A DNA stretch of 64,000 bases from a virus (IMGVR_UViG_3300033233_000013:50857-114856); one strand, 5' to 3'. Shown: positions 15,570 to 64,000, counted from the stretch's first letter. Numbers and translations: made by a program. The notes: generated by a model not told the origin, from the sequence alone.

Positions 15570-15793
15570 TCGGCGCAGCGCCGGGCGCGCGCGCGGGCGA
15601 CGAGCGCGCGGCGATACTGCGCGATCGCCTCGGGGTCGCCGGCGGCGGCGCGCTCGCGGATCCCGTCGGTGAACGTCGACGCGTGATCGGCCATGCCGGC
15701 CGCCGCGGCGCGGAGCTGCTGGCGTTGCGCGAGGTTCCGATCGCGCAGGCGCTCGGCGCGCGCGGCCGCAGCGGTGAGTTCCTTCGGCGTCAT
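15566..15793 (-). CDS. Small helical protein (75 aa)
   Basis: MTPKELTAAAARAERLRDRNLAQRQQL... Confidence 0.4.
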   Translation of the reverse strand: MTPKELTAAAARAERLRDRNLAQRQQLRAAAAGMADHASTFTDGIRERAAAGDPEAIAQYRRALVARARARRCAE

Positions 15794-47414: not shown

Positions 47415-47852
47415 TTACGCGGGCGCCTCGAACCGGCGGAGGTTCTCGACGCGAAAGCCGTGCTGGAGGGGAAATTCCCCGCCGGTGTGCACGACCCGGA
47501 GCAGCATCACGTGCACCTCGTAGAGCGACGCGCGATCGAGGATTGGGACCAGGCGCGCGGGGAACGTGAGGAAGAGCTTCAAGACCGTCGGATCATCCGG
47601 GTCGGTCGGATCGACCACGTACCGCGCGCCATAGACCGCCTTCATCGGCGGCAGATCGCTCGCCACGAAGATCGGGATGTCTTCCTGGCTTCGGATCGTG
47701 TTCCCGGCGTCGTCGTAGACATCGGCGTTGTAGAGCGCGACGAGCGTGATCGTGAGGAGGGCCGCGAGCGGCACCGGGAGGCGCGTGTGCGTGTCGAGGA
47801 GCGGCGCCGACCACTCGACATCCGCGCCCTCTGGCACGTCGGTCACGATCAC
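47415..47852 (-). CDS. Hypothetical protein (145 aa)
   Basis: MIVTDVPEGADVEWSAPLLD... Its start overlaps the portal stop. Confidence 0.45.
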   Translation of the reverse strand: MIVTDVPEGADVEWSAPLLDTHTRLPVPLAALLTITLVALYNADVYDDAGNTIRSQEDIPIFVASDLPPMKAVYGARYVVDPTDPDDPTVLKLFLTFPARLVPILDRASLYEVHVMLLRVVHTGGEFPLQHGFRVENLRRFEAPA

Positions 47853-49750
47853 GGCCAGGCCTCGTCGGGGAGGTGGCGGATCTGGACGACGAGCGGCGGG
47901 TCCGCTTCCGCCTTCTGGAGGCGCCCGCCCGTCGGGCGCGCCGCGCTCGTGCCGCCGCGGCCGCGCGCGGCGTCGCTGCCGCGATTCGTGGCCGGTGCCC
48001 CTGCGTCACGCGCATAGGGAAGCGGCGCCTCACTCGCAGGGAGGCCATCGCCGATCCTCCCCGGTGGTGCCCCCTCGCCGCCGGGCTGCTCTGGCGGCGC
48101 GAGCTTCCCCTGCTGCTGGAGGCTCGTGATGTACAGGCTTTGGAGCGCGGGGTTCACGGGCGCGCCGCCGATCAGCGGGTCCTCGTGCTTGGCTTCGCCG
48201 TCGATCGTCAGCATCCGATCCACGGTGAGCGTCAGCTTCTGGCGCTCGTGCTTCCGCGCTTCGTCTTCGGGGAAGAGACCGACGGGGGTGAGCCGATACT
48301 TCGTCGTGAGCTGGCTCACGAGGTTGTCGTTGACGAGCCCGATCCAGAAGAGCATCAGCGGGATGAGGCCGCGGTCGCGCGAGGACTGGAGCTTCTCGGT
48401 CGTGTCCTTCCCCGAGAGCGAGGAGGTATGCACGGAGAACGATTCGAAGTTCAGCTCCTCCGGGGCGAGCCCGAAAAACGCGCAGCCGAGCGACACGAGG
48501 AAGGTGAGGAAGCGGACCATGAACATCTCCGCTTCCGCCATGTTGTCGATCGGCGTCCACGCCGCGCCGCCCTCGGTCTTGGAGCGCGCGACCATGATCG
48601 GGATGTTCCACTGATTCGACGCCCCCGAGAGGAGGAGCTGCCACTTCTGCTGCAGGTCCAAGACCTGGCGCTGATTGTAGTCGCCGAAGAGCGTGAAGAA
48701 GCCGCGCGGGATCGCCTTCTTGTCGACGAACGTGGAGTTCATCGCGAAAAGGTTCAGGTACGCGGTGGCCGCGCGGACGAAGTGCTCGAGCTCGGCATCC
48801 CCATACCCACCGAGGTAGATCGAGCTCCGCGGGTTGCGGACTTCATAGATGAGCTCGTCGCGCTCGAAGCCGACAAACGGCTGGCGGGTCAGCGGGTCGA
48901 TCTGCACGCCGACGATCGCGTCGTTCCCCTCATAGCCGTCTTCGAACGCGAGCCGGATCGTCGTGAAGTCGAGGTTGTGCCAGCCGAGGAGCTTCCCGCT
49001 TCGTGCCCGCACCGTCTCGATGGGGCAGGCATCGGCCGTCAGCGTGTCGGCGATCATCGCCGCGACGAAGCCGGGGAAGGTGCGCAGACGCTGGTTCCAG
49101 CGCCGCTCGAGCGGATCGGTGGTGGCACCGGAGCTCTCGATCAGCGCCTCGAGCCGCGCGATCTCTTTCTGGTCGGCCTTCGTCAGCCGCTCGCCGTCGT
49201 TCCGGACGAACCGCACGCCGAGCGGGTTGTTGTCGTCTTCCCGGTAGAACCGCGCGAACGGCACCACCTGGTGGACGCGCGTCTGAATCATCGCCTGGAT
49301 GATGTCGACGCGGCTCGCCATCATGCGGAGAAACTCGAACCCGCTCGTCACGGTTGGCTTCTCGGCGAACGGATCGGCGGTCTGCCCGATCACGCCGAGC
49401 TCGTGGACGTGGAGCACCGCGTGGTGGCGCGCGCGGCGCGGATCGTCGGCGTACTTCCCGGGATAGGTCGCGGCGTAGAGCGAGGGGCTCAAGACGACGG
49501 ACTTCGCGAGGCTCTGGTGCTGGAAGCGCTCCCAGCTGTCGCGGATCTCGTCGGGATCGACGACGGCGACGCCGTGCGCGATCTGATCGCGGAGGCTCGC
49601 GAGGATCTCGCGCCCGACGGCCTGCTCCTCGTCGGCGGGGAGGTCGGTCCGTCCTGCCGTCTCGAAGAGCCCCGCGAGTCGTCCCACCGTCCCCCGCCCT
49701 TGTGTGGGACAGGCCCGACGCGCGAGCGCCCGCGCGCTCGAAGGCCGCAC
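47849..49750 (-). CDS. Probable portal protein
   Basis: 633-aa ORF between the terminase region and the MuF-containing head module. Gly/Pro-rich, basic C-terminal tail. The exact start is uncertain. Confidence 0.5.
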   Translation of the reverse strand: MRPSSARALARRACPTQGRGTVGRLAGLFETAGRTDLPADEEQAVGREILASLRDQIAHGVAVVDPDEIRDSWERFQHQSLAKSVVLSPSLYAATYPGKYADDPRRARHHAVLHVHELGVIGQTADPFAEKPTVTSGFEFLRMMASRVDIIQAMIQTRVHQVVPFARFYREDDNNPLGVRFVRNDGERLTKADQKEIARLEALIESSGATTDPLERRWNQRLRTFPGFVAAMIADTLTADACPIETVRARSGKLLGWHNLDFTTIRLAFEDGYEGNDAIVGVQIDPLTRQPFVGFERDELIYEVRNPRSSIYLGGYGDAELEHFVRAATAYLNLFAMNSTFVDKKAIPRGFFTLFGDYNQRQVLDLQQKWQLLLSGASNQWNIPIMVARSKTEGGAAWTPIDNMAEAEMFMVRFLTFLVSLGCAFFGLAPEELNFESFSVHTSSLSGKDTTEKLQSSRDRGLIPLMLFWIGLVNDNLVSQLTTKYRLTPVGLFPEDEARKHERQKLTLTVDRMLTIDGEAKHEDPLIGGAPVNPALQSLYITSLQQQGKLAPPEQPGGEGAPPGRIGDGLPASEAPLPYARDAGAPATNRGSDAARGRGGTSAARPTGGRLQKAEADPPLVVQIRHLPDEAWP

Positions 49751-51117: not shown

Positions 51118-51272
51118 CGCTGCCTCCAGGAACCGTGCCCGATGCAGAGGTAGAAGTGGCCGATGTGCATGCGCATCACGCCGTCGGTGAACCAGATGGA
51201 GAAGTACATCGGCTCCTGCCGCGACCAGTACATACGAACGAGCCCGCGTATCTTGAGCACACGGATACTCAT
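51114..51272 (-). CDS. Hypothetical small protein (~52 aa)
   Basis: Internal Met MSIRVLKIRGLVRMYWSRQEPMYF... on an ATGA overlap with the terminase stop. Confidence 0.35.
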   Translation of the reverse strand: MSIRVLKIRGLVRMYWSRQEPMYFSIWFTDGVMRMHIGHFYLCIGHGSWRQR

Positions 51273-53392
51273 CGCCAATCGATCTCCTCCTCCGCCGCCG
51301 GCGTGAACATCCCGCAGGCCGCGAGCGTCGCAGTGACGCCCAAGTTCCGCGCCGTGCAGCGGTTCTTCGCGGCGTTGAAGCTCGCGCACCCGCCGCAGGT
51401 AAGCTGCGCCTGGTCCTCGGCCGCAAGCGGCATCACGAAGCCGGGGAGCGCGCGGCGCACCTCATCCATCGCGGGCGGCGGCGGCAGCTCCGTGACCGGC
51501 GTCTCGAGATCGACCGAGGAACCCGGCTCGACGTCAAGCATGAAGTCCTGCCCGTACGCGCGCGCCCAGGCGACGTCGCAGAGCATGTTCGCGAACGCGA
51601 AGTGCGGATCCTCGGGGCCGATCTTCTTCACGACCCCGCGGTACTTGAGCTCGTCTTCTTTCTTCTCGCCGCCGACGAGCTCGGTTACGAGCGCGACCGA
51701 CTTCATGTGCTTCCAGAACATCTCGCGGCAGACCATGACGTCGCGGGTGCCTTCGGGGGTGCGGAGGCGCTGGGTCAGCGTCCGCGCATCCGGGGTCTCG
51801 ACGCCACCCCGCGCCCAGCGCTGCAGCGCGGCGGACATCATCTTGTAGCGGTGGACGGTTGCGGTGTACGGCGTCTTGAAGTCGTCGGTCGTGCGGCGGT
51901 CCGTCACGCGCTCCTTCTGCCGGTCGCCCCAGCGGATCATGCCGCTCGTGATGTCGCTGTACGCGTCGACGACGAAGACCCGGCCGGGGAAGTCGTGCGC
52001 GAGCGCGTAGGCGGGGTCGGTGTTCGGGAGCGCCTCGAGACACGCATAGCGGACGTGGAACGCCTGCAGCAGCTCGCGCACCCGCGCCCACGGATCGGCC
52101 GCCTGCACCACTTCGAGGTGGAGGACGCGTTGGCGATCGCCGACCTTCCCCTTGATCACGATGTGGTGCTCGTGCGAGCGCTGGTCGAGGCCGAGGAAGA
52201 CGGCGTCGACGTCGACGCGCTTGGGTGGCCCCCAGACGAGGTCCGGATTCTGCGCGGCGTCCAGGATCGTGTCGTTGATCGGCACGGTCGCGGGATCAGT
52301 GAACGGGAGCCCGACGACGCGGTTGAAGTAGTCTTGCGTCGAGATCCGTCGGCGCCACTTCTCGAGGGTCTGCGCGGGCGTTTGCCGGGGCGAGAGCATC
52401 TGCGGGAACTGGAACCCGTAGCGCTTCTTCACGTCCGCGTCGGTCCGGTGGCGCACGTACTGCCCGACCTGCGGGTCGCGAATGATGTGTTTGCACTTCT
52501 GGCAGACGTAGAAGTAGTCGCGTGGCACGCCCGGGGTTGTCCCGTTCCCGCGGTCGATGCAGAGCGGCCCTTGTTGCGGGTCGACCTGCTTCGCGAGGAT
52601 GATGCCTTCTTTGCAGCGGCAGGTGGTATGAAACCAACGCTGGTCGGAGCGTTGGAACCAGAAATCGATGTCCGCACCCTCGAAGCCGCCGGTCGACCCA
52701 AACGCCATGATCTTCAACGTCGAGGCGTCGAGCCGATGCTGCGCGCGCTCCATCGACGCGAGGCCCATCGCGTGCACCTCGTCGAAGAAGACGGCATCCA
52801 TCGGGTTGGACTCCGTCGAGATCTTGCCGCCGAGGGAGAAGAAGTAGAGGAGCGAGCGCCAGAGCTTGCGGATCGACATCGCGCCTTCGTCGATGACCGC
52901 GTGCGTGTGCGGATCTTCGGGATCGCCCATGAGCGCGTGGATCCCGGGGTTGTCGCGGACGAGCCCCATCCAGCGGTTGTCGGAGAAGTCGGTCGCCTTG
53001 GTATCGGTCGGCAAGTAATAGCCGGCGCGGAAGAGCTCGATGCGGAGCCCGAGCCAGATCGAGAGCAGCAGGAGCGCGATCGATTTCCCGTTTTGCGAGC
53101 TCGCGAGGAGACAGAGGCTCCAGTCGGTGAGCCCGTCGATCGACTGCGGCACGGCCGCGTAGATCGGGCGGAGATGCTTCCAGACCGTAAAGTCGACGCG
53201 CTCGCGATCAGCGCGAAACCCGCCCTGCTCGACCCACGTGACAAACGGCTTCGCGCGCGCATCACGGAGGACCTGCGTCCGCTTCCCGCTCCGCTGGTGG
53301 TGCTCCCGGATCGCGGTCGCCAACCACGGCGTTCGCAAGACGTTCGAGCCGGGCAATGGCACTCTCGAGGGCAGAGCCGGGGACGAACTCAT
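51269..53392 (-). CDS. Terminase large subunit (lambda gpA-like)
   Basis: 707 aa with a P-loop-like LASSQNGKSIALLL and a Walker B AVFFDEVHAM, plus a C-terminal nuclease-sized domain. It lies upstream of the portal gene. Confidence 0.7.
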   Translation of the reverse strand: MSSSPALPSRVPLPGSNVLRTPWLATAIREHHQRSGKRTQVLRDARAKPFVTWVEQGGFRADRERVDFTVWKHLRPIYAAVPQSIDGLTDWSLCLLASSQNGKSIALLLLSIWLGLRIELFRAGYYLPTDTKATDFSDNRWMGLVRDNPGIHALMGDPEDPHTHAVIDEGAMSIRKLWRSLLYFFSLGGKISTESNPMDAVFFDEVHAMGLASMERAQHRLDASTLKIMAFGSTGGFEGADIDFWFQRSDQRWFHTTCRCKEGIILAKQVDPQQGPLCIDRGNGTTPGVPRDYFYVCQKCKHIIRDPQVGQYVRHRTDADVKKRYGFQFPQMLSPRQTPAQTLEKWRRRISTQDYFNRVVGLPFTDPATVPINDTILDAAQNPDLVWGPPKRVDVDAVFLGLDQRSHEHHIVIKGKVGDRQRVLHLEVVQAADPWARVRELLQAFHVRYACLEALPNTDPAYALAHDFPGRVFVVDAYSDITSGMIRWGDRQKERVTDRRTTDDFKTPYTATVHRYKMMSAALQRWARGGVETPDARTLTQRLRTPEGTRDVMVCREMFWKHMKSVALVTELVGGEKKEDELKYRGVVKKIGPEDPHFAFANMLCDVAWARAYGQDFMLDVEPGSSVDLETPVTELPPPPAMDEVRRALPGFVMPLAAEDQAQLTCGGCASFNAAKNRCTARNLGVTATLAACGMFTPAAEEEIDWR

Positions 53393-54022: not shown

Positions 54023-54943
54023 TCATGCCCGTGCTGGTTTCGTTGGCACGCGATCGGCCGCGAGCATGGCACCCGTGACTTGCGTGAGCGTATCGGCAAC
54101 CGCGTTCGCGCCGCTCGGCAAAAACAGGACAGTGCTGTTCGGCGCCGTGCCGACCGCTTTCATGGTATCGAAATATTGAATCGCCGTGATGAAACCGACG
54201 ATCTGATCCTCCGTGAGCGTGCCGCCGCGGACCTGCTGCATTTCCTCGATCGACTTCTTCATGCCCTCGGTGATCGCAAGGCGCTGGCCAGCGATGCCCT
54301 TCCCGTGGAGAATGTTCGACTCCATCTCGGCTTCGGCCTCCTTCACGACCATGATCTTTTTTGCCTCGCCCTTGTACGACGCCGCGACCTTCTCGCGCTC
54401 CGAGGCGACAATGTCGTTCATCGCCTTCACGACGGCATCGCTCGGGTGAATCCCGGTGATCTGCGAGGCGGCGATCTCCCAGCCGAACTCGGCCATTTCG
54501 CGGTTCAGCGTCTCGTTGATCAAGCCCGCCGTCTCGTCGCGCTTCTCGAACACCTCATCGAGTGCCATCTTCGACACCGAGGAGATGACGAGCGCCTTCA
54601 CGTACGACTCGATCTGGGCATCCTCGTCGTCGAGGCTGTAGGTGGCCTCGTAGAGCTTGTCCTTGATCGGTTTCCGCTGCACCGAGATGACGACGGTGAC
54701 GAAGGCGTTGTCACGCGTCTTGACCTCGACTTTGATGACGTACTGCTCCAGCCAGAGGTTCAACGTCCGCGCGACCATGTCCACGAATGGCAGCTTGAAG
54801 TTGATGCCCGGCTCGGCGATGCGGAGGAACTTGCCGAACCGCTCGATCACGAACCGCTCCTGCTGCTCGACGCGGAAGACGCCGAGGAAGACCGTCAGCA
54901 CCGCCAGCCCGCTCAGGACCCCGAGGATACTCCATCCGATCAT
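54023..54943 (-). CDS. SPFH / band-7 (stomatin/HflK-like) membrane protein
   Basis: Internal Met MIGWSILGVLSGLAVLTVFLGVF (TM anchor) followed by a typical SPFH core (RFVIERFGKFLRIAEPGINFKLPFVD...VKTRDNAFVTVVISV...) and a coiled-coil tail. Confidence 0.7.
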   Translation of the reverse strand: MIGWSILGVLSGLAVLTVFLGVFRVEQQERFVIERFGKFLRIAEPGINFKLPFVDMVARTLNLWLEQYVIKVEVKTRDNAFVTVVISVQRKPIKDKLYEATYSLDDEDAQIESYVKALVISSVSKMALDEVFEKRDETAGLINETLNREMAEFGWEIAASQITGIHPSDAVVKAMNDIVASEREKVAASYKGEAKKIMVVKEAEAEMESNILHGKGIAGQRLAITEGMKKSIEEMQQVRGGTLTEDQIVGFITAIQYFDTMKAVGTAPNSTVLFLPSGANAVADTLTQVTGAMLAADRVPTKPARA

Positions 54944-55034
54944 GCGTCCTCCACCTTCCTTGCCACGACACGCGAGGCGCGGGGACGGCCCGCGCTCGCA
55001 CCCTTCCCCCCGTCGCCGTCCGACGGCGTTGCCC

Positions 55035-55343
55035 TCAGATGTGGGTGGCGTTCGGATCGAACTGGCCCGCCGGCGGCGGTCCGAGCTCGTCGAGCGCGTC
55101 GTGATACTGCATCGAGATCTCCGCGAGCGCCGCGCGGTACTGGACGGACACGAGCGCCAACGCCCGCCGTTTCGCGGCGGCCAGCACGGCCTTCTGCGCG
55201 TCGGTCTTGCCCTGAATGTCCGCGTGGTACTGCGTGCCGAGCGCGCGGTTCGCATCGAGCATCGCCTGCCCGGCCAGATCCTCCTCGTGCTTCTTCTGCC
55301 GCAAGAGCGGCTTCCGCGCCGCCTCGTACTCCGCTGCTGTCAT
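55035..55343 (-). CDS. Small helical protein (~102 aa)
   Basis: Internal Met MTAAEYEAARKPLLRQKKHEEDLAGQ... on an ATGA overlap. Confidence 0.45.
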   Translation of the reverse strand: MTAAEYEAARKPLLRQKKHEEDLAGQAMLDANRALGTQYHADIQGKTDAQKAVLAAAKRRALALVSVQYRAALAEISMQYHDALDELGPPPAGQFDPNATHI

Positions 55344-58300
55344 GGGCAATCCTCCCCTTCCGTGTTCGGCGCGAGCTCCGTGCCCGCGCGGGTTGACGTG
55401 GTCTCGATCCGATCGAGATCGAAGAGCGTCGGCGTTGCCATGTCTCGCGCGGCCGCCTCGCAGTAGCCGACGCCGTCGGTGAAGTAGCGGGGGTTGAGCT
55501 CGAACCCGAGGCCGCGGCGGCGGAGTTTCAGCGCGCAGAACGGGACAGTTGCGAGCCCGCAGAAGGGATCGAACACCGTCTCGCCCGCCATCGAGAGCTG
55601 CGTGATCAGGCGATCGACGATGTCGAACTGCAGGGCGCACAAGTGCATCTCGCGGCCCTTCGCCGCCTGCGCGCCGTTCAACGTCCGCATGCGCGTGATG
55701 TCGGTCCAGACATCGGGGTGCCACGACGGCGGCTGCAGCAGCATGAACGTGACCGGGAGCATGCCCTTCGCTTCGAGCGCCTCGCCAAGCGCCACGTGGT
55801 GCTCGAAGTCGTAGACCTCGGCGAGCCCCGAGTTGCGGAAGAGCTGGAAGATCGCGTCGTGCGCCAGGTGCACGATCTCCTCCGGTCGCAGGTGCCGATT
55901 ACCGCCGGAGCGCATGAAGCCATGCGCGTCGATCTGCCACCGGGTCCGCGAGTACGCGGCCTTCTCCTTCACGACCGGCTCGTCGGCGTACCCGTCGCTC
56001 CCATCGGTCGGCGGCTTGCGGAACAGCAGCACGTATTCCGGCATCCCGGCCCCCATCCGCGAGCCGTCCTTGCACTGCTCGGTCCAGCCGAGCCGGTAGG
56101 TCTGGTTGTTCTCGCGGACGACGTCGGTGACGACGGTCTTACGTCCGAGGAAGGCGAAGCCGTGCTGCCGGAAGTGCGCGACCGTGGCATCGCTGAACGG
56201 GCTCACGGTCTGGAAGCCGAGGCCGGTCAGGCCCCCGGGGACGATCCGATCCTTCACGTGGACGGCGCAAACGCGCCCGGGCTTCAGGACGCGGAGGAGT
56301 TCGGGGGTTAGGTAGCCGAGATGCTGGAAGAAGTGGGCGTCATCATCGGTATGGCCAAGGTCGCGATATGATGGAGTATATTCGTATTGAGTCGAGTTGC
56401 CGCTGATGCATGGCTTTCCGTTGCGACGGACGATGATCGTTCCGTTCGGGACGGTGGCGCAGCCGATCATGCCGTCATACGTCACGCGATCGGGTGCGCG
56501 CCGAATCTCGGGGTAGATCTGCTTATCCCCGACGTAGACGTAATTGCCGTTGATCGCTGCGCGCCATCCCGTCTTCAGACAGATCTCCTGGAAGTGGTCG
56601 CGCAGCTCCTTGCTGTAGGACGTGTAAGTTGTGTGATCGCGCGAGCCATCACCTTTCATCATCGTGTCGCGCAATATGGTCAGCAGGTGCGGATGCAGTT
56701 CCCTGACCCAGGCGGGAATGCGCTTTTGCTTGCTCCCGCTCCCGAACTCCGCGATCAGGAAATACGCCAGATTGCGGCACCAGACGGTGAGCTGTCGTGA
56801 ATGCCACGACGGCGGCAACCCGATGCGCACAAAGAGGTCGGCGATCTCCTGCCGAAGCGTCTGGTTCTTTACCTGGGCGATGGAGATGCGCCCGGCCGAA
56901 CGCCCACGAGAAAAGGAATCTGCGTGGCCCTCGGAAAGATACCAGCCCGCCAGCGCCACGAAGTCTTCGGCCTCAATCCAGTACAACTGGACGCCGTGCC
57001 CACTCCGAACGTTGGCGGGCAGTGGCGGAATGCTGATTCGCGATGGACGATGTCCATCGCCTCTCTCGGGAGGAACAAGGCAGGTGCGCCATGCCCTTCC
57101 AACGCGCCCGCGAGCCTGCCCGCGACGCTTCGCACGCTCATAGTCAAGGGCGATCGTTGCCGCGTCCACGAGGTGGAGCTTCTCGGGACCGAATCCCTTC
57201 CCGCGCCTCGCGACCAACATGCGATGATTGGGGGTGACCAGCAGATCAAAGGACCGATTGCCGAACCGCAGCATCTCGCCCGAGTAGTGTTGCCAGATGA
57301 TCGCGGTCGGTCGCTGCCACTCGAAACACCGCCGCCCTTGGTTGACGGTGGCAACTGTGTCTGCGGGCGCGAGGTCGCCAAAACCAATCCAGCCACGACC
57401 GGTGAGAACTTCGGTCGATGCGTCGTGGCAGAAGGGAATCGACGTGACGATCAGGTGCACGCTGTCGGACTCCAGCGTGCGCGTCTCCTCGATCGCGTCG
57501 GCGTTCACCAGGCGATAGTTCTCCCCCGCGACCTCGACGCGCTCGATGGTCGAGGTCCGCTTGAGCGCTCCCGCGATGTCCGGGTGCGCGAGGCCGTACT
57601 CGCGGATGATCTCCGTCATCTTGCCGACCATCACCGTGTGCTGTGCCCACTTCCGCTCGAGCGTCCGACGCACCTCGCGCTCGGCCTCGGTGTAGATCAG
57701 GTCGATTTCGACGGGCTTCGTCTGCAGAAAGCGGTGGATACGATGCAGGGCCTGGATGAAATCGTTGAACTTGAAGCCGATGCCGAGAAAGACCGCGCGA
57801 TGACAGTGCCGCTGGAAATTACACCCGCTGCCGCTGAGCACGGGCTTCGTGGCCAGGATCGGAATCTCCCCGTCGCTGAACTCGATGATCCGCCGCTCGC
57901 GCTCCTCGAGGTCCTGCGCGCCGTACACCTCGGTCGCATTGGGGACCGCGCCGACGATCGCATGGCGCTCGACTTCGAGATCGTGCCAGAGGAGAAAATG
58001 CTCGTCAGGGCTCGCGGTTACGATCTCCCGCAGCTTCGCAACGCGCGCCGTCAGGCTCTCCCGCTTCTCTCGCGCCGCGTCCTGCACACCGAGCGCCGCA
58101 TTGCGGATGAGCCGGCCTTGCCCGTCCCGCTCGTGCCCCGCCTTCCGGTGGTCGGTCGGCACCTCGTGCCAACGCACCGCCATCGGTGGGAGCGCATAGC
58201 CCTCGTCGGAGTAGCCGAGATCCGACGGGCGCTGGAGCAAGATCGCCCAGCTACTCACCCACAACCAGAACTCTTTCTCTTTGTGCGCGTGGAGCGTGAG

Positions 58301-58990
58301 CTGGTCGGCCTTCGTCGAGTCGCGCTTGAAGAAGCGCGTCTTCGCTTGGCTCACATCGAGGATGCCGAGATAGGCCGCGTACGCGAGGAGCTCGATGTAC
58401 TCGTTCGGACTCGGCGTCGCCGTGGCCACGAACCGATAGGGGACGCCCGTTCCCATGGCCTTCTGCGCCTTGACGCCGCGTGCGGGATCAGCCGCAAAGA
58501 GGCGCATGAACTCGCGAAACGTCTTGGTGCCACCGAATCCGCGGAGCACGCTCGCCTCGTCGAGACTCGCGACCGTGAACGCCTGCGGATCGAGCTTCCC
58601 GTCGCGCACGGTCTCGTAGTTCGTGAGGTAGATCGTCGCCTCGTCGTCGGCTTCCTCGATGCGCCGGATGAACTTCACGGGCGTCCCGAGCATCGCCGCA
58701 TCGCGGATGAACTCTTGCCGCACTCCGAGCGGGAGCACGATGAGCGCGCGACCCCCGATCCGCGCCCGCGTCAGCCGCACCGCTTCCAGCTGGATGACAC
58801 TTTTCCCAAGACCAAACGCGGCAAAGCAGGCACGCCGTCCACCCGCAACCATCCACCGCACGAGGGCCCGCTGGTGGTCGCGGAGAAGGGGATGGATCTC
58901 CTCGGGCGCCACGTCGAAGCCGTGGCTCTTGGCGACGCAGACCTTGCGTCCAAGAAAAGCGTCGTAGTCGGTCTGCGGCTCGCCGGTCAC
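55340..58990 (-). CDS. SNF2-family helicase fused to a beta-class N6/N4 DNA methyltransferase, apparently interrupted by an intein
   Basis: Helicase motifs AAFGLGKSVIQ (I), ASLDEASVL (II), VATATPSPNEYIELL (III), QALHRIHRFLQ (VI). MTase motifs LRVLKPGRVCAVHV and MHLCALQFDIVDRLITQLSMAGETVFDPFCGLATV (AdoMet motif I). The DPPY-equivalent HLIVTSIPF is followed by an intein N-terminal block. The start may be a GTG near 58990 if the 79-aa ORF at 58987-59226 is real. Confidence 0.7.
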   Translation of the reverse strand: MTGEPQTDYDAFLGRKVCVAKSHGFDVAPEEIHPLLRDHQRALVRWMVAGGRRACFAAFGLGKSVIQLEAVRLTRARIGGRALIVLPLGVRQEFIRDAAMLGTPVKFIRRIEEADDEATIYLTNYETVRDGKLDPQAFTVASLDEASVLRGFGGTKTFREFMRLFAADPARGVKAQKAMGTGVPYRFVATATPSPNEYIELLAYAAYLGILDVSQAKTRFFKRDSTKADQLTLHAHKEKEFWLWVSSWAILLQRPSDLGYSDEGYALPPMAVRWHEVPTDHRKAGHERDGQGRLIRNAALGVQDAAREKRESLTARVAKLREIVTASPDEHFLLWHDLEVERHAIVGAVPNATEVYGAQDLEERERRIIEFSDGEIPILATKPVLSGSGCNFQRHCHRAVFLGIGFKFNDFIQALHRIHRFLQTKPVEIDLIYTEAEREVRRTLERKWAQHTVMVGKMTEIIREYGLAHPDIAGALKRTSTIERVEVAGENYRLVNADAIEETRTLESDSVHLIVTSIPFCHDASTEVLTGRGWIGFGDLAPADTVATVNQGRRCFEWQRPTAIIWQHYSGEMLRFGNRSFDLLVTPNHRMLVARRGKGFGPEKLHLVDAATIALDYERAKRRGQARGRVGRAWRTCLVPPERGDGHRPSRISIPPLPANVRSGHGVQLYWIEAEDFVALAGWYLSEGHADSFSRGRSAGRISIAQVKNQTLRQEIADLFVRIGLPPSWHSRQLTVWCRNLAYFLIAEFGSGSKQKRIPAWVRELHPHLLTILRDTMMKGDGSRDHTTYTSYSKELRDHFQEICLKTGWRAAINGNYVYVGDKQIYPEIRRAPDRVTYDGMIGCATVPNGTIIVRRNGKPCISGNSTQYEYTPSYRDLGHTDDDAHFFQHLGYLTPELLRVLKPGRVCAVHVKDRIVPGGLTGLGFQTVSPFSDATVAHFRQHGFAFLGRKTVVTDVVRENNQTYRLGWTEQCKDGSRMGAGMPEYVLLFRKPPTDGSDGYADEPVVKEKAAYSRTRWQIDAHGFMRSGGNRHLRPEEIVHLAHDAIFQLFRNSGLAEVYDFEHHVALGEALEAKGMLPVTFMLLQPPSWHPDVWTDITRMRTLNGAQAAKGREMHLCALQFDIVDRLITQLSMAGETVFDPFCGLATVPFCALKLRRRGLGFELNPRYFTDGVGYCEAAARDMATPTLFDLDRIETTSTRAGTELAPNTEGEDCP
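56396..57430 (-). mobile_element. Putative intein (~345 aa) with a LAGLIDADG homing-endonuclease core, inserted at MTase motif IV
   Basis: Begins CHDASTEVLTGRGW (block A) and carries LLVTPNHRMLV (block B, TxxH). LAGLIDADG-like segments FVALAGWYLSEGHAD and AYFLIAEFGSGSK are present. It ends ...TIIVRRNGKPCISGN followed by S of the extein. Confidence 0.5.
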
Positions 58991-59226
58991 AACGCCACCC
59001 GTTCTCCGAGGAGCCGCGCCGTCTGCGCGCCACCCCGACAATCCGAATTGTCGAGGCAGTACCGGACGTTCTGGATGAGCGTGCCCTCTCCCATGCCGAA
59101 CTCGGCGCTCAGATCGGTCGTGAAGAGGCCGAGCTCCGTGTGGAGCCGCGGCGTCTGGCAGATCAGGCACGGGAGGCGCACGACCTCCTCGGGGGTGCGG
59201 AGCAGCGGGATGACGCGCGCGCTCAT
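58987..59226 (-). CDS. Weak small ORF (79 aa)
   Basis: MSARVIPLLRTPEEVVRLPCLICQTPRLH... has normal composition. It may instead be 5' leader of the helicase-MTase gene. Confidence 0.3.
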   Translation of the reverse strand: MSARVIPLLRTPEEVVRLPCLICQTPRLHTELGLFTTDLSAEFGMGEGTLIQNVRYCLDNSDCRGGAQTARLLGERVAL

Positions 59227-59230
59227 GGCC

Positions 59231-59686
59231 TCACCGATCCGTCGCGAAGCAGACGAGGAGACTCGCGACCGTGCAGTCCGACCCCGGACACTGCGACGCG
59301 ACCGTGCACGCGCGTCCCGCTTGCGCGCCGCCGGCGCACGCCGGGGTGACGGCGCCGATCCGCAGCGTGAGCCGCCCCTGCACCCGAAGCGTCGTCGCCC
59401 CCTTCGGCGCCGTGACGAGCACGCCTGCCGCCGTGCACCGGAGCGGGACGCCGCCGTTCACGGTCGCGCCGCCGACCAGGATATCGAGATCGACGGCGCC
59501 GGGGCCCCCGAGCACACACGAGACGCTCTCCACCCGGCTCCTTGCGATCGCTTCCCAGATCGGCCCGGCGCGATCGCCCCCCTTCGGCGTTTCGACGAAT
59601 GCACAGTGCTGGACCGCGCCCGCGACGCGCGCGAGGGCCAAGATGATCACCACCGCGACCCCCATCTGCCACCACCCGAGTCTCAT
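59231..59686 (-). CDS. Small secreted Cys-rich protein (~151 aa)
   Basis: Internal Met MRLGWWQMGVAVVIILALARVAGAVQHC... on an ATGA overlap. C-terminal CAGGAQAGRACTVASQCPGSDC repeats resemble those of the giant secreted proteins. Confidence 0.5.
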   Translation of the reverse strand: MRLGWWQMGVAVVIILALARVAGAVQHCAFVETPKGGDRAGPIWEAIARSRVESVSCVLGGPGAVDLDILVGGATVNGGVPLRCTAAGVLVTAPKGATTLRVQGRLTLRIGAVTPACAGGAQAGRACTVASQCPGSDCTVASLLVCFATDR

Positions 59687-60156
59687 TGGACCTCCCACTC
59701 GATCGCGTGCTCGCTCTGGGCGCCTGCGTCCACGCACGCCGGCAGGCAGTCCTCGCACTGGCACGAGCAGCCGCGGGCGCAAGGCGGTGGCGCACCGATC
59801 AGCGTCGCGTGCGTGATGACGATCGGGACGACATCGCAGCCAGCCTTGGTGCCGAACGTGTTCCGGCCGCCCTCCATCTCGTTGGGCGGGATCGTGAAGA
59901 ACGGCTCCTCGGTACACTGGCCCCCGCGGAAGACTTCGGCGGTTTCGAACGCGACGAGTGCGCACCGTTCGAAGGTCGCGCCATCACAGTCGAGATACGG
60001 CTGCGCCCGTGCCTGCGCGTCCTGGACGGCGACCGCGTGGCCGCGATAGCCCTCGTAGTAGCGGTCGGGCGGGATCAGATGCGCCCGGGCGACCGCGGCA
60101 GCGAGCACCATGGACCCGACCGCCAGCACCACGATCGCGATCAGCGGGCGCCTCAT
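59683..60156 (-). CDS. Small secreted Cys-rich protein (~157 aa)
   Basis: Internal Met MRRPLIAIVVLAVGSMVLAAAVARA... C-terminal CARGCSCQCEDCLPAC. Confidence 0.5.
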   Translation of the reverse strand: MRRPLIAIVVLAVGSMVLAAAVARAHLIPPDRYYEGYRGHAVAVQDAQARAQPYLDCDGATFERCALVAFETAEVFRGGQCTEEPFFTIPPNEMEGGRNTFGTKAGCDVVPIVITHATLIGAPPPCARGCSCQCEDCLPACVDAGAQSEHAIEWEVQ

Positions 60157-60160
60157 GCGC

Positions 60161-60766
60161 TTACCCAGCCCGTCGGTTCCGCTCCTCGCGCCGCCGCGCG
60201 CCGACCGCGTGGTAGTACGTGCGCGATTCGAGCTGTCGTTTGAGGCGCGCGCAGTCCGCGCAGCGTCGTCGGCGGGCCGCCGCCCCGCAGACGGCGCGCA
60301 TCGTCGCCGGAACGCCCGGGCAGATCCGGTCGCGGATCGGCGCCTCGCCCGCCGCAATCGCCGCCGCCACGACCGCGAGCACCAGCACCTCGCACGCCCG
60401 GATGGTCGCCGAGAGCGGGCGCCACGGCCGCGCCCGGCGCTCCAACGGCGTCCGCAGCACCGCCGCCGCCTGCCACACGGCAACGAGCTGCGCCCGGCAC
60501 CCGTCGTAGGGCTGGTCGAGGATCGTCTCGCAGAAGTAGCGTGCGGAGCCGAATGTCGTCCGCGGATCGTCGAGCCACCACCACTGCGCGTTCGCGATGC
60601 AGCGCTCGCGCTCGGCCGCGTTCCGGTTGTCGTTGTCGAGGGTCGGGTGCCCGCTCGCCTCCTCGTAGGTCGCAAGGGCGATTGCCGCCAAGAGCTTCCG
60701 TTCGCGCGCGCCGACGAGCGAGAGTCGGCCGCTCGCCGTATGTTCCCCACCCCCGTCCTCCATCAT
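60161..60766 (-). CDS. Protein with an ANAQWWWxDD domain, paralogous to the N-terminus of the gene at 29936-31378
   Basis: ...NAAERERCIANAQWWWLDDPRTTFGSARYFCETIL... compared with ...ANAQWWWRDDERPAGEWGSAESLCDALGF... Confidence 0.45.
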   Translation of the reverse strand: MMEDGGGEHTASGRLSLVGARERKLLAAIALATYEEASGHPTLDNDNRNAAERERCIANAQWWWLDDPRTTFGSARYFCETILDQPYDGCRAQLVAVWQAAAVLRTPLERRARPWRPLSATIRACEVLVLAVVAAAIAAGEAPIRDRICPGVPATMRAVCGAAARRRRCADCARLKRQLESRTYYHAVGARRREERNRRAG

Positions 60767-60841
60767 CCCGAGCCTGAGTCCGTGCACACATGGGCCCTCC
60801 TGCCTGCCCCACCTTGGTTGTCGTCACCGCCCTGCCCTTGT

Positions 60842-61093
60842 TCACGGTCGCCACCCGGTCCCGATGTTGCCGACATCGCTAAACGTCGTGGTGCCGAGGA
60901 TCGTATCGTCGGCAAGCTCGGCCTGGTCGCCAGCGGCTCGCGCACGCGCTCCCCGATGCTGCCCCTCCCAGAGCTGCTCGCGCGTCTCGTCGATCCCCGC
61001 CTCGTAGCCGGTCACGACCCCGCGCCAGTACGCGCACGCCGCGACCAGGAGGAGCACGAGCAACGCCAGGAGCGCGCCGAGCGGTTCACCCAT
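60842..61093 (-). CDS. Small membrane protein (1 TM)
   Basis: Internal Met MGEPLGALLALLVLLLVAACAYW... Confidence 0.4.
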   Translation of the reverse strand: MGEPLGALLALLVLLLVAACAYWRGVVTGYEAGIDETREQLWEGQHRGARARAAGDQAELADDTILGTTTFSDVGNIGTGWRP

Positions 61094-61544
61094 GCGCAAC
61101 CTCGCTCTGCGCACGTGCCGCGACTGCAGCAGCGAGACCACGCGCGAGTGCGTCCGCCAACTGCGGCGTCAGAAGGCTCTCGGCGTACACGTGGTAGTCC
61201 GTCGCCTTGTCCTTGACCGCGATCTCCACGACCGCCCAGACCGGCGCCACGAGGCCATACCCCGCCGCCAGCGCGATCCGTTCAGGTTCGCCGCCCGTCT
61301 CCGCAGCCCGCGCGAGATCAACCAGTGTCGAGGGCTCGACGCCGTGGTTGCTGGCTACCTTCGCGGGCACGACGAGCTCGAGCGTGAGGAGCGGATTGCC
61401 ATTCGCGCGGACGACGACGGCCGCACGCCGGCACCAATGAGGGACGGCGCCCGCCTCGACGAGGCAGCGTCCCAAGCGGAGCGGGGACAACCCTCGATTC
61501 ATATCGGCCATCAACGTGCTGCCCTCCACAATCGTCTCACCCAT
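61086..61544 (-). CDS. Hypothetical protein (152 aa)
   Basis: Normal composition. It is co-oriented and overlaps the stop of the helicase gene. Confidence 0.45.
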   Translation of the reverse strand: MGETIVEGSTLMADMNRGLSPLRLGRCLVEAGAVPHWCRRAAVVVRANGNPLLTLELVVPAKVASNHGVEPSTLVDLARAAETGGEPERIALAAGYGLVAPVWAVVEIAVKDKATDYHVYAESLLTPQLADALARGLAAAVAARAQSEVAHG

Positions 61545-63327
61545 GCGCGACCTCGCTCTCGGGCGGCGCCGGTACGTCGCCGCGGGTAGCCAGGTACGCT
61601 TCCGCGAGCCGGCGCATGTGCTCGGGATCGACCTCGAGTTTCTCGATCAGCGCGGCGTCGGGATCGCGGATGCCTTCGCTCTGCTGCGCTTTCAGCCCGA
61701 GGACGTCCGCCATCACCGGGTCCGCCCCATCTTCGGACACGAGGAAGTACGCGACGCACGGCTCTTCCTGCCCGTCGCGGTGCACGCGGCCGAGGCATTG
61801 CTGGAGCACGCCCGGCGACCAGTCGAGCTCCCCGAAGACCGGCGTCCGGCAGTGGCCCTGCAGCCCGTCGAGCCCCGCGCCGGCGCGGAGCGACATGATG
61901 AACAGCGGCGTCTTCCCCCGCACGAAGCGCCGGAATTCCTCGTGCTTCTTCGATGGGGATTCGCTGCCGGTGAACCACGCGGGCTCCAGGTCCGCGAAGA
62001 GCTTTGCCCAGATCGCGTACACCGCGCGGTGCCAGCCATAGAGGACGATCCGCTCGCCACTCTCGATCAGCATTCGCACGAAGGTCGCGACGTAGGGCGC
62101 CTTGGCAACCCCCGTCGCTTGGCGGAGCAGCATGTCGAACTCCGCCGCGGCTTCTCGCGTCGCGCCGCGGTACGCCGCATCGGACCGCGCCAGAATGGCC
62201 CGCGCGAGACCAGCCGCATCGGCGTCGATATGATCGAAGGCCCCGCGATCGCTCTCGATCGTGTGCACGATCCGCTGGAGCGGTGGGAGCTCGCGGCCGA
62301 CCTCGGCGCGGGTGCGCCGGAGCATCAAACCCTGCGCCCGGAGATAGTGGCCGAGCGCCTTCGGATCGGCGACAAACGCGCGCTTCCCCCATCGCCCATC
62401 GCACCACTCGCGCGCGAACTCCGCCTTCGTCCCGAGCACGCCCCGCTTCATGCAATCGAAGACGGTGAAGATCTCGTCGCCGTAGTTGTAGATGGGCGTG
62501 GCGGAGGCGGCGAAGACGTATCGCGCGTGCGCCGCGAGATGCTGCGCCGCCGCGTATTTCTGACTCGGCCGCTGTTCATCGCCCGCCCGGCGCAACTCTT
62601 GGACTTCATCGAACGCGACAGCCTTGATCAGCGGGGCGAGTGTGTCGGCCCACCCTGAGAGCTTGTGGTAGTTCGCGATGATCACATCGGGGAAGGGCTC
62701 GCCGAGATCGTACGGTGTCCCCTTCTTCAGCACGTGCACGCGGAGCGCGGGCGCGAACTTCTGGAGCTCCTCGACCCACTGGCGCGGGAGATGCGCGAGC
62801 GTTACCACGAGCGCTGGCCGCGTCGCGGGGTCGGTGAGCGCGGTGATCACGCTGCAGGACTTGCCGGTGCCGAGGTCGTCCGCGATCAGAAGAATGCCCG
62901 TGCGGAGCGCGAGATCCGCGGCCACCGCCTGGTACTCGCGTGCCGGCACAGCGAGCGTAAACCGCCGCGGCCGGTACCCACGCGCGAGGATGGTGGCGAT
63001 CAGCGTTTCCTTCTCGCGATGCGCCGCCGCCCGTGCGTTCAGGTGGGCGCGGTCGGGCGCCGCCATCTGCATCGGGTAGCGCTCCAAGAACCACGCGAGC
63101 TCGCGCGCGTTCTCGATCGTGTCGCTGAGCCCGATCGTGTCGTGGCTCCCCTTGTGCACGCGCTCGAAGACGCGCTTCAGGCGCAGACGCACGTGGGGCT
63201 CGCAGCGGATGAGCCAGCGGCGTTCGGTCTTCGCGAAGGTGATCGTGCCGAACGTGCGCGCGCCCGGCCGACGTGGGCTGCCATGGCTGAACGGGACGTG
63301 ATCCCGCGGGCGCGGCTGCGGCATCAC
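61537..63327 (-). CDS. SNF2-family helicase (596 aa)
   Basis: Motifs LIADDLGTGKS (I), LVVTLAHLPRQWVEELQKFAP (Ia), VAFDEVQEL (II), FAASATPIYN (III) and LDWSPGVLQQCLGRVHRDGQ (V/VI). Confidence 0.75.
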   Translation of the reverse strand: MMPQPRPRDHVPFSHGSPRRPGARTFGTITFAKTERRWLIRCEPHVRLRLKRVFERVHKGSHDTIGLSDTIENARELAWFLERYPMQMAAPDRAHLNARAAAHREKETLIATILARGYRPRRFTLAVPAREYQAVAADLALRTGILLIADDLGTGKSCSVITALTDPATRPALVVTLAHLPRQWVEELQKFAPALRVHVLKKGTPYDLGEPFPDVIIANYHKLSGWADTLAPLIKAVAFDEVQELRRAGDEQRPSQKYAAAQHLAAHARYVFAASATPIYNYGDEIFTVFDCMKRGVLGTKAEFAREWCDGRWGKRAFVADPKALGHYLRAQGLMLRRTRAEVGRELPPLQRIVHTIESDRGAFDHIDADAAGLARAILARSDAAYRGATREAAAEFDMLLRQATGVAKAPYVATFVRMLIESGERIVLYGWHRAVYAIWAKLFADLEPAWFTGSESPSKKHEEFRRFVRGKTPLFIMSLRAGAGLDGLQGHCRTPVFGELDWSPGVLQQCLGRVHRDGQEEPCVAYFLVSEDGADPVMADVLGLKAQQSEGIRDPDAALIEKLEVDPEHMRRLAEAYLATRGDVPAPPESEVAHG

Positions 63328-63788
63328 ACGAGTCCCCGCCAGACCGCCAGCGTGCGGAGCGGCTTCCCGTCAATCTCCCCGCCGAGATTCGCGAGCTGCA
63401 CGCGCTGGGTGACGAGGAGGAGCGCACGCACGCGGTCGTGCTGCGCGTAGCGCGTCAGCTGCTCCAGCACGGCCGACGGGCCGCCCTTGATCTTCACCTC
63501 GACCCCGATCGCGCCGACCAGGAAGTCGATGCGGTCCTCCGGGGTGAGCGCGACCTCGCGCTCGAACGCGATCCGCTCGTGCTGGAAGATGAGCGCGAGC
63601 CCGTCCTGCACCTCGCGCTCACCCGTGCCGCGGACACCGTAGTGACGCAGCACGGTCACGAGCTCGTCGAGCGTCGAGGGTGGGACAGGGGCGGTCGTGG
63701 CGCGTCGGCTCAACGCATCTCCTCCGTCAGCGCGAGAGGCCGGCGCGCCAGCGCCGGCCTCCGCATGGGTTTGCTCTCCGCGTCCCAC
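63324..63788 (-). CDS. PD-(D/E)xK nuclease, VRR-NUC-like, in the usual partnership with an SNF2 helicase. The true start is probably downstream of the track start.
   Basis: ...EDRIDFLVGAIGVEVKIKGG... (D...EVK core). The first ~30 codons of the track ORF overlap a hairpin and are likely non-coding. Confidence 0.45.
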   Translation of the reverse strand: MGRGEQTHAEAGAGAPASRADGGDALSRRATTAPVPPSTLDELVTVLRHYGVRGTGEREVQDGLALIFQHERIAFEREVALTPEDRIDFLVGAIGVEVKIKGGPSAVLEQLTRYAQHDRVRALLLVTQRVQLANLGGEIDGKPLRTLAVWRGLV

Positions 63789-63801
63789 GTCCGTGGGACG
63801 C
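63780..63801 (-). other. Perfect 10-bp stem / 2-nt loop hairpin (GCGTCCCACG-tc-CGTGGGACGC) between the acidic-peptide gene and the nuclease gene
   Basis: Inverted repeat read from the sequence. No U-tract follows on the minus strand. Confidence 0.5.
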
Positions 63802-63802
63802 G

Positions 63803-63889
63803 TTACTCGTCGTCGTCCTCGTCCTCGAAGTCGTCGTCGTCTTCATCGTCGTCCTCGACGGGCTCCGTGGGCGGGATCTTGTCGTCCAT
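63803..63889 (-). CDS. Extremely acidic 28-aa peptide MDDKIPPTEPVEDDDEDDDDFEDEDDDE
   Basis: ATG preceded by AAAGGGGGTGAGG (a strong Shine-Dalgarno at -6). An in-frame stop lies 16 codons upstream, so a longer form is unlikely. Confidence 0.4.
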   Translation of the reverse strand: MDDKIPPTEPVEDDDEDDDDFEDEDDDE

Positions 63890-64000
63890 CGCCTCACCCC
63901 CTTTCGTCCGATCGCTTCCGCGATACGGGTGCTCTCGTCACCTTCGGCTCGCTCGTGACGCTGCGGTGTGCCAAACTCCGGCGATTAGGCAGGGCTTGAC

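Follow-up and report, generated by a model that had tools for sequence, protein, structure and literature searches.

A predicted class 1 LAGLIDADG intein at the catalytic motif IV of a phage helicase-methyltransferase

Inteins have been published in phage genes for DNA metabolism, including the N6_N4 methylases of actinophages (PMC5050341, PMC9957025, bioRxiv 10.1101/2025.01.02.630785), and we describe here an element of this kind in viral DNA of 64,000 nucleotides (IMGVR_UViG_3300033233_000013:50857-114856); this whole stretch is called the window, and positions are counted from its first letter. The gene in question lies on the minus strand at 55340..58990 and carries an insert of 345 amino acids (aa) at 56396..57430. 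The insert is very probably a class 1 intein with a LAGLIDADG homing endonuclease, placed in a phage superfamily 2 (SF2)/SNF2-like helicase::class-beta methyltransferase right after motif IV (S-I-P-F^S; a caret marks an insertion point throughout). No earlier description of this host gene and insertion site was found, and the element type itself is well known.

The inteins of actinophage N6_N4 methylases (DNMT-1/-2, Kelley et al. 2016, PMC5050341; the Dorothy_75/Akhila_67 family, Gosselin et al. 2023, PMC9957025) are likewise LAGLIDADG class 1 inteins in a phage orphan amino-methyltransferase, and they share with the window intein a patchy distribution and horizontal transfer. The two are homologous, with 25-27% identity over all 345 aa and a common end, ...RRNGxxxxxGN^S. 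However, the host proteins Akhila_67 and Awesomesauce_76 lack a helicase and carry DPPY close to the N-terminus, and their intein site (...IAWLYG^C...ITGN^SGFPKS) is not at motif IV as it is in the window. Since host methylase and site both differ, identity of the window intein with the published allele was ruled out. An earlier note on this DNA had called inteins in DNA methyltransferases rare; the actinophage cases make this an overstatement, and what stands is that those checked differ from the present one.

More distant comparisons concern inteins in other hosts. The phosphoesterase (recombination directionality factor, RDF) intein of mycobacteriophage Bethlehem shares with the window intein Cys1, the TxxH of block B, Cys at F:4, VPNG, the penultimate Gly, the terminal Asn and Ser+1, and pairwise BLAST gave E values of 7e-8 for the N part and 1e-6 for the C part. 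It differs in its metallophosphoesterase host (GNHD^C) and its length of 317 aa, and it aligns in two segments only (30% identity over 79 aa and 21% over 121 aa). The solved inteins PI-PkoII, TliVMA/PhoVMA, PI-PfuI and PI-SceI are only 10-17% identical to it, come from archaeal or yeast hosts and interrupt other exteins (VMA, RIR1, Pol); several of them carry an extra DNA-recognition or stirrup domain, whereas the window intein is compact at 345 aa. An SNF2-family host is known for the Snf2 intein of Deinococcus radiodurans, whose splicing has been shown experimentally according to the passages that cite it in PMC11219805 and PMC4031507; by these literature descriptions, on which the comparison was made, it is a class 3 intein in the helicase part, whereas the window intein is class 1 (Cys1) and in the methyltransferase part.

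The host gene itself belongs to a family with isolated members. Proteins of the phrog_16 helicase/methylase family from Pseudomonas phi297-like phages, Rhizobium phage RR1-A, Arthrobacter phages and cluster F mycobacteriophages are 54-65% identical to the window extein over its whole length and have TSIPF and DPFxGLxTVP in common with it. The isolate members listed are about 850-870 aa long and, unlike the window gene, all intein-free. Among 50,697 isolate-phage records, no helicase-methyltransferase allele occupied by a related intein was found (no record covers at least 80% of the query). Occupied alleles are common in metagenomes and present in IMG/VR, and one representative genome, a Chelatococcus metagenome-assembled genome, has such an allele.

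The insert comprises aa 521-865 of the precursor (nt 57430..56396), is in frame between TSIPF and STQYEY, starts with CHDASTEVLTGRGW and ends with ...CISGN, after which S follows. In a gene family with at least 8000 matches, 97 of the 119 best matches are uninterrupted and are called empty alleles here; in these, TSIPF^STQYEY is contiguous and reads ...TSIPF^STQYEYTPSY(R/N)DLGH..., so that the insert is not a chance feature. An empty-allele sequence across the insertion point is ...ACGTCGATTCCCTTC^TCGACCCAGTACGAGTAC.... The extein junction predicted after splicing is ...LIVTSIPFSTQYEYTPSYR. An AlphaFold2 model of the insert, made with an alignment of 84 homologs, is confident (predicted local distance difference test 90.5, predicted template modelling score 0.91) and contains both a Hint fold and a LAGLIDADG fold. 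Full-length homologs of the insert (100% coverage, 25-33% identity) are found inside unrelated hosts, namely ThyX, metallophosphoesterase, papain-like protease, GpA/terminase-like (Pfam GpA_nuclease), AAA, PD-(D/E)XK and NrdD proteins, and an exhaustive HMMER scan with the insert returned 4863 clusters at E<=1e-10.

Removal of the insert in silico heals the host protein. The score of Pfam N6_N4_Mtase (PF01555; cut-off 26.7 bits) rises from 32.5 to 44.8 bits, and the coverage of its profile is extended from positions 37-217 to 1-217. Against the class-beta enzyme TTHA0409 of T. thermophilus (2zie), the spliced protein aligns gapless over the junction (SVHLVVTSPPYWTLKRY...LGH against SVHLIVTSIPFSTQYEY...LGH), with TSPPYWTLKRY..LGH in TTHA0409 against TSIPFSTQYEY..LGH in the window; such an alignment had been set beforehand as a test. 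Together, the four lines of comparison with homologs, structure, modularity and host healing on removal settle that the insert is an intein. The earlier proposal of a LAGLIDADG intein splitting a helicase::class-beta methyltransferase at motif IV, made for these same coordinates, is thus borne out by the two folds, the terminal Asn and the +1 nucleophile.

Some observations weigh against this assignment. Sequence-only intein models respond faintly (Pfam Hint_2 at 15.8 bits and LAGLIDADG_3 at 20.6 bits, both under threshold), and the best PDB sequence match of the insert has an E value of only 0.39 (to a class 3 split intein). An assisting His is absent at both G:6 and F:13, and our literature search found no paper on the function or base specificity of the host enzyme. 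A search of the insert against NCBIfam gave nothing useful, and a literature search for an intein together with motif IV returned nothing relevant. Because sequence-only detection is weak, the case for the intein has been built on structure and comparative evidence.

The intein runs from Cys1 to Gly344-Asn345 and is followed by Ser+1 (56396..57430; all parts of the intein and of its host gene are on the minus strand). The N-terminal Hint, or splicing, lobe (intein aa 1-89, 57164..57430) contains block A CHDASTEVLTGRG at 57392-57430 and block B DLLVTPNHRMLV at 57212-57247, in which the TPNH motif supplies Thr66 and His69. The LAGLIDADG homing-endonuclease domain (intein aa ~151-290, 56561..56980) has its motif 1, EDFVALAGWYLSEGH, at 56924-56968; this includes LAGWYLSEG and Glu167, coincides with helix 154-167 of the model and has invariant residues. 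Motif 2, HLLTILRDTMMKGDGS, with Asp261 (intein aa 248-263, 56642-56689), coincides with model helix 247-261 and was located also by family conservation; block D, KQKRIPAW, is at 56708-56731. The C-terminal Hint lobe (intein aa 291-345, 56396..56560) contains block F VTYDGMIGCATVPNGTIIV at 56429-56485, with Cys324 at F:4, and block G RRNGKPCISGN at 56396-56428. While block B, LAGWYLSEG and the listed helicase and methyltransferase motifs were all found where the earlier note expected them, its second LAGLIDADG segment, LIAEFGSGS, lies in the helix ahead of block D (KRIP), and the true motif 2 is LLTILRDTMMKGDGS.

Conservation supports this assignment of residues. Cys1, Thr66 and His69 (the TxxH of block B) are invariant over the 84 homologs, and Gly168, Asp261, Cys324, Gly344 and Asn345 are kept in at least 90% of them. 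Ser+1 is present in all 14 alleles occupied at the same site as in the window (site a), and empty alleles also show Ala or Gly there. A penultimate His is common in inteins and not obligatory. At this position (block G:6) the window intein has Gly344, which is the norm in its family (at least 90%), and on this comparison the Gly is not a defect, because the Bethlehem phosphoesterase intein with the same set of residues is reported to splice. In that intein splicing is efficient with Gly and slower after replacement of Gly by His (PMC5050341). The two LAGLIDADG helices, each with an acidic residue at its end (Glu167 and Asp261), are arranged in an alpha-beta-beta-alpha-beta-beta-alpha pseudo-dimer fold. 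Conservation across 23 related inteins is highest in the endonuclease domain, with a mean pairwise identity of 0.60 against 0.52 and 0.58 for the Hint lobes, which argues that the endonuclease is under selection.

A class 3 assignment was considered on account of the best PDB match and the Cys at F:4. Class 3 inteins are defined by the lack of Cys1 or Ser1 and by a Trp(B:12)-Cys(F:4)-Thr(G:5) triplet (PMC4031507, PMC5050341), of which the window intein has the Cys at F:4 as its sole signature residue; this residue is the second most common one at F:4 in inteins generally and is common in class 1 (PMC4031507). With Cys1 invariant, Met at B:12 and Ser at G:5, class 3 was ruled out.

The host gene forms one uninterrupted open reading frame (ORF) at 59170..55340. 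Its start is probably the GTG at 58990, because this codon makes a GTGA overlap with the stop of an upstream 79-aa ORF and agrees with homolog N-termini and with the gene as called on a public contig of identical sequence. The product is 1216 aa long and, with the stop codon included in the end coordinate 55340, the precursor gene (55340..58990) encodes an SF2/SNF2-like helicase::class-beta amino-methyltransferase with one intein, in the phage 'DNA helicase/methylase' family (phrog_16, 7e-113). The N-extein (aa 1-520, 57431..58990; phrog_62 'DNA helicase', 9.5e-35) contains the helicase lobes and the first strand and motif IV of the methyltransferase. Its helicase motifs are GLGKS (58799-58816), DEAS (58550-58564), TATPSPN (58403-58423) and QALHRIHRF (57728-57754), and motif IV, TSIPF (aa 516-520), is at 57431-57445. 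The C-extein (aa 866-1216, 55340..56395) consists of Ser+1, STQYEYTPSYRDLGH, the target-recognition region, the HLC motif (55622-55651), motif I VFDPFCGLATVP (FDPFCGLATV at 55541-55576, with FDPFCG at aa 1140-1145) and the stop codon; LRVLKPG is at 56276-56296 and ELNPRY at 55484-55504. This part is covered by Pfam N6_N4_Mtase and by alignment to 2zie, N4CMT, CcrM, M.MboIIA and M.RsrI.

Class beta is defined by the motif order IV, target-recognition domain (TRD), I (PMC7544214), and the window enzyme has this order, from TSIPF through the TRD to FDPFCG, with a Pfam score above the gathering threshold; class-beta enzymes are the only PDB matches of the family profile. Compared with the consensus (D/N/S)-P-P-(Y/F/W), S-I-P-F fits at positions 1, 3 and 4 and has Ile at position 2. 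Among the 97 empty homologs, S, P and F are invariant, and position 2 is Ile in 91, Val in four, Pro in one and Ala in one. Whereas the earlier note took SIPF for a degenerate motif whose activity may be lost, it is, judged from this conservation, the regular motif IV of the family and gives no sign of lost catalytic activity. The Ser at motif IV position 1 leans towards an amino-methyltransferase producing N4-methylcytosine (m4C) or N6-methyladenine (m6A), as do TTHA0409 and a cytosine-N4 methyltransferase, which are the nearest solved relatives. A PADLOC search gave generic Type II methyltransferase matches and nothing else.

The identity of the helicase part is less direct. Helicase motifs I, II, III and VI are present, as the earlier note held for an SNF2 helicase, but the window N-extein itself reaches at best 14.4 bits with Pfam Helicase_C, below threshold, and it is orthologs that pass (P0013 and P0120 for SNF2-rel_dom, P0006 and P0010 for Helicase_C). 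An hhalign comparison of the N-extein with the second SNF2 helicase of the window was collinear over 347 columns and weak (E 0.004, probability 8%), and PDB sequence searches with the N-extein alone and with the family profile found no helicase match. The label 'SNF2' for the window protein is therefore indirectly supported, by motifs and orthologs.

The intein looks recently mobile. When homologs are ranked by extein identity, the first 96 (73-77% at the top) are all intein-free, and the exteins of all occupied alleles are more distant (53-67% identity). The inteins at site a are 50-72% identical to that of the window (64-72% among the closest ten), which in most cases exceeds the value for the extein, as for P0006 with 55% identity in the extein and 69% in the intein. 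That inteins in most occupied alleles are more similar than their exteins argues for recent transfer. Base composition adds to this: the GC content at third codon positions (GC3) is 0.75 in the intein and 0.87 in the extein, the latter typical of the genome, and a GC3 scan found 0.40 in the first 20 C-extein codons (56336..56395), a probable co-conversion tract. Over the whole extein, GC3 in stretches of 15 codons (mean 0.87, standard deviation 0.11) reaches its minimum, 0.33, in the stretch that begins exactly at the +1 codon, and the 20 codons upstream of the intein have a GC3 of 0.95, so that the trough is one-sided. The same 20 post-intein codons have a GC3 of 0.55 in the occupied allele P0002 and of 1.00 in the closest empty allele P0022; since the latter encodes almost the same residues, the trough is specific to the occupied allele. 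It fits a one-sided co-conversion tract, which would have been carried in with the intein from a donor of lower GC. Site-specific cleavage of the empty allele is thus indirectly supported, by the intein/extein similarity pattern and this co-conversion-like tract.

Elsewhere in the extein GC3 is low in a single patch, at 58781-58855 (minus strand, codons 46-70, GC3 0.40-0.53 against 0.87). This patch and the helicase P-loop FGLGK^S overlap; the P-loop site is empty here and occupied by an intein in the homolog P0005. A past intein or gene conversion may have left the patch as a footprint, and the overlap may also be due to chance (roughly 10%).

Inteins of the same lineage occur in homologs at four points within ten codons after motif IV, SIPF^S (site a), YEYS^S, YEYTP^S and SPNY^C (site b), corresponding to window codons 866-876 (nt ~56363-56395). 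Homologs P0012, P0015, P0036, P0051, P0126, L007 and L020 are occupied at site b, P0016, P0021, P0094, P0120, P0125 and L010 at site c, and P0052 at site d. Intein identity is 47-55% between sites and 50-78% within site a, and the inteins group in site-specific clades, with the linker region (aa 90-150) varying most between site groups. Every allele occupied at SPNY^C has Cys at +1, whereas the 97 empty alleles have N, A, R, S or H there, and the intein therefore appears to have created its own nucleophile. Adjacent sites have a precedent in TerL1-a and TerL1-b, which are one residue apart (PMC5050341); unlike in that case, the inteins at the four methyltransferase points are clearly homologous to one another.

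The closest relatives outside the methyltransferase form a sister clade (P0122, P0124, P0127, L011:2501-3550; 41-47% identity) located between motifs V and VI of a separate SF2 helicase, at the site ...FVGLSD^C...VVSGN^S(F/W)E..YQ..RRCWRFGQ. This host helicase is distantly related to the second helicase of the window (36% over 84 aa). In neighbour-joining trees with 200 bootstraps, the site-a clade was recovered 197 times, the helicase clade 199 times, both together 197 times, and all methyltransferase sites together 122 times.

The helicase-methyltransferase family is a hotspot of inteins, as further ones of about 330-356 aa occupy three other sites. These are the HL^C site (EMHL^C...IVKN^CPLQFD, after window aa 1117, nt ~55637-55639; P0005, P0008, P0016 and P0066), a site after aa 217 (QGK^AQPLDAKIL...VTHN^TRFFKRD; P0021, where the intein starts with Ala and is possibly class 3) and the P-loop site after aa 63 (GLGK^CHGAGTKIL...VTHN^T, 334 aa; P0005). 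All three are empty in the window, whose HL^C site has a Cys as its +1 residue. Tentatively, one intein lineage may have been re-seated repeatedly within a single homing region, to which we give a serious chance, though short of an even one. If true, re-colonisation of one endonuclease target at shifted positions ('intein sliding') would be a route by which inteins escape saturation and gain new sites, and such traffic would have left its footprints as the two patches of low GC3, one at the occupied motif IV site and one at the empty P-loop site.

The residues present suggest how the intein would work. Translation would give a 1216-aa precursor with a split catalytic loop, in which the methyltransferase could not be active. 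Cys1 would undergo an N-S acyl shift aided by Thr66 and His69 of block B, the N-extein would be passed to Ser+1, Asn345 would cyclise and release the intein, and an O-N shift would yield an 871-aa enzyme whose motif IV region, TSIPFSTQYEY, is that of intein-free homologs. The freed intein or the precursor would then act as a site-specific endonuclease on intein-free alleles of co-infecting phages or prophages, and repair would copy the intein with a short flanking stretch of extein into the empty allele (homing). The junction is placed in the active site by the alignment to 2zie and by Pfam, and methyltransferase activity would necessarily depend on splicing, because the intein lies inside the catalytic loop. 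The most likely task of the mature enzyme is methylation of phage DNA, presumably for protection against host restriction, a role suggested by the family annotation.

This strict dependence also leaves room for conditional splicing, that is, a post-translational switch, for example redox control via Cys1 and Cys324, which would delay methyltransferase activity during infection. Both Cys residues are conserved, and non-His penultimate residues in phage inteins have been proposed to tune the splicing rate (PMC5050341). However, selfish inteins as a rule insert into active sites, and Cys ranks second in frequency among the residues at F:4 (PMC4031507). A switch would in any case be an add-on to the best explanation and not an alternative; we regard it as unlikely.

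It is quite unlikely that the element is an intein by descent that no longer works, either with splicing impaired, in effect a pseudogene, or with only the endonuclease dead, on the way to a mini-intein. The penultimate Gly, the lack of a His at F:13 and the subthreshold Pfam intein models would agree with such decay, as would the only identical public contig (L001), in which the 3' end of the gene copy is replaced after aa 1061. Against it, the essential nucleophiles and block B residues are all kept and invariant over the homologs, Gly-Asn is normal in the family and in the homolog reported to splice (PMC5050341), both LAGLIDADG acidic residues are retained in the best-conserved domain, the ORF is intact with an extein GC3 typical of the genome, and the greater similarity of inteins than of exteins in most occupied alleles argues for recent transfer.

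Finally, although class-beta methyltransferases carry a variable region after motif IV (PMC7544214) and another phage methylase is known to have a free-standing LAGLIDADG insertion (PMC9957025), it is extremely improbable that the insert is a permanent methyltransferase domain, such as a homing endonuclease domesticated into a target-recognition or nuclease module, in that complete Hint lobes with Cys1, TxxH, Asn and Ser+1 flank the endonuclease, the invariant catalytic loop and not a variable region is split, the insert is missing from the 96 closest homologs, the same module is found in unrelated enzymes, and a +1 Cys present in all occupied and 0/97 empty alleles at site b is sensible only if splicing is required.

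The window has the gene context of a tailed-phage genome, with a large terminase (51269-53392), a portal (47849-49750), a major head protein (11774-13303) and a tail sheath (4952-6412). A second, separate SNF2-family helicase (61537-63327, minus strand; Pfam SNF2-rel_dom 48 bits, phrog_62 1.6e-77) is located 2.4 kb upstream of the helicase-methyltransferase gene, so that the phage has two SNF2-like ATPases. The methyltransferase and terminase genes are separated by a 238-aa ORF and, at 54023-55255 (minus strand), a gene for an SPFH/Band 7 domain protein (Pfam 4e-26), an uncommon passenger for a phage packaging module; as listed, this ORF probably starts too far upstream, because its first ~100 aa are rich in Arg. 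Two very large ORFs on the minus strand, 38367-41441 (1024 aa) and 15790-21411 (1873 aa), have coding-like GC3, and a PHROG search with the 1024-aa product gave no match.

The public contig L001 (ENA ERZ27248239 k141_1651292, 117 kb) is 100% identical to the window over 55806-63979 (8174 bp) and departs from it abruptly at both ends. One break falls inside the methyltransferase gene, after ...AEVYD (aa 1061/1216), and the gene copy there, with its 3' end replaced, is therefore without motif I; the flanking 342-aa ORF had no Pfam match. The divergence may reflect an assembly chimera or a real rearrangement.

For annotation, the 1216-aa ORF is better read as an 871-aa enzyme and a 345-aa mobile element, as standard domain models overlook the intein, which scores under the Pfam thresholds, and truncate the methyltransferase match. 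The element is an ordinary type of intein and a clean example, which leaves the current understanding of inteins unchanged, and, being compact, of the Cys1/Gly-Asn/Ser+1 type and apparently intact in its endonuclease, it is a candidate tool. It extends the known homes of inteins to a widespread phage helicase-methyltransferase family and to the catalytic motif IV of an amino-methyltransferase. The signs of recent homing are unusually clean: the closest allele lacks the intein, conservation is mostly higher in the intein than in its extein, and the probable co-conversion tract lies on one side only. The family, in which insertion points lie side by side and at least three more sites exist, would be a good natural system for learning how inteins change sites.

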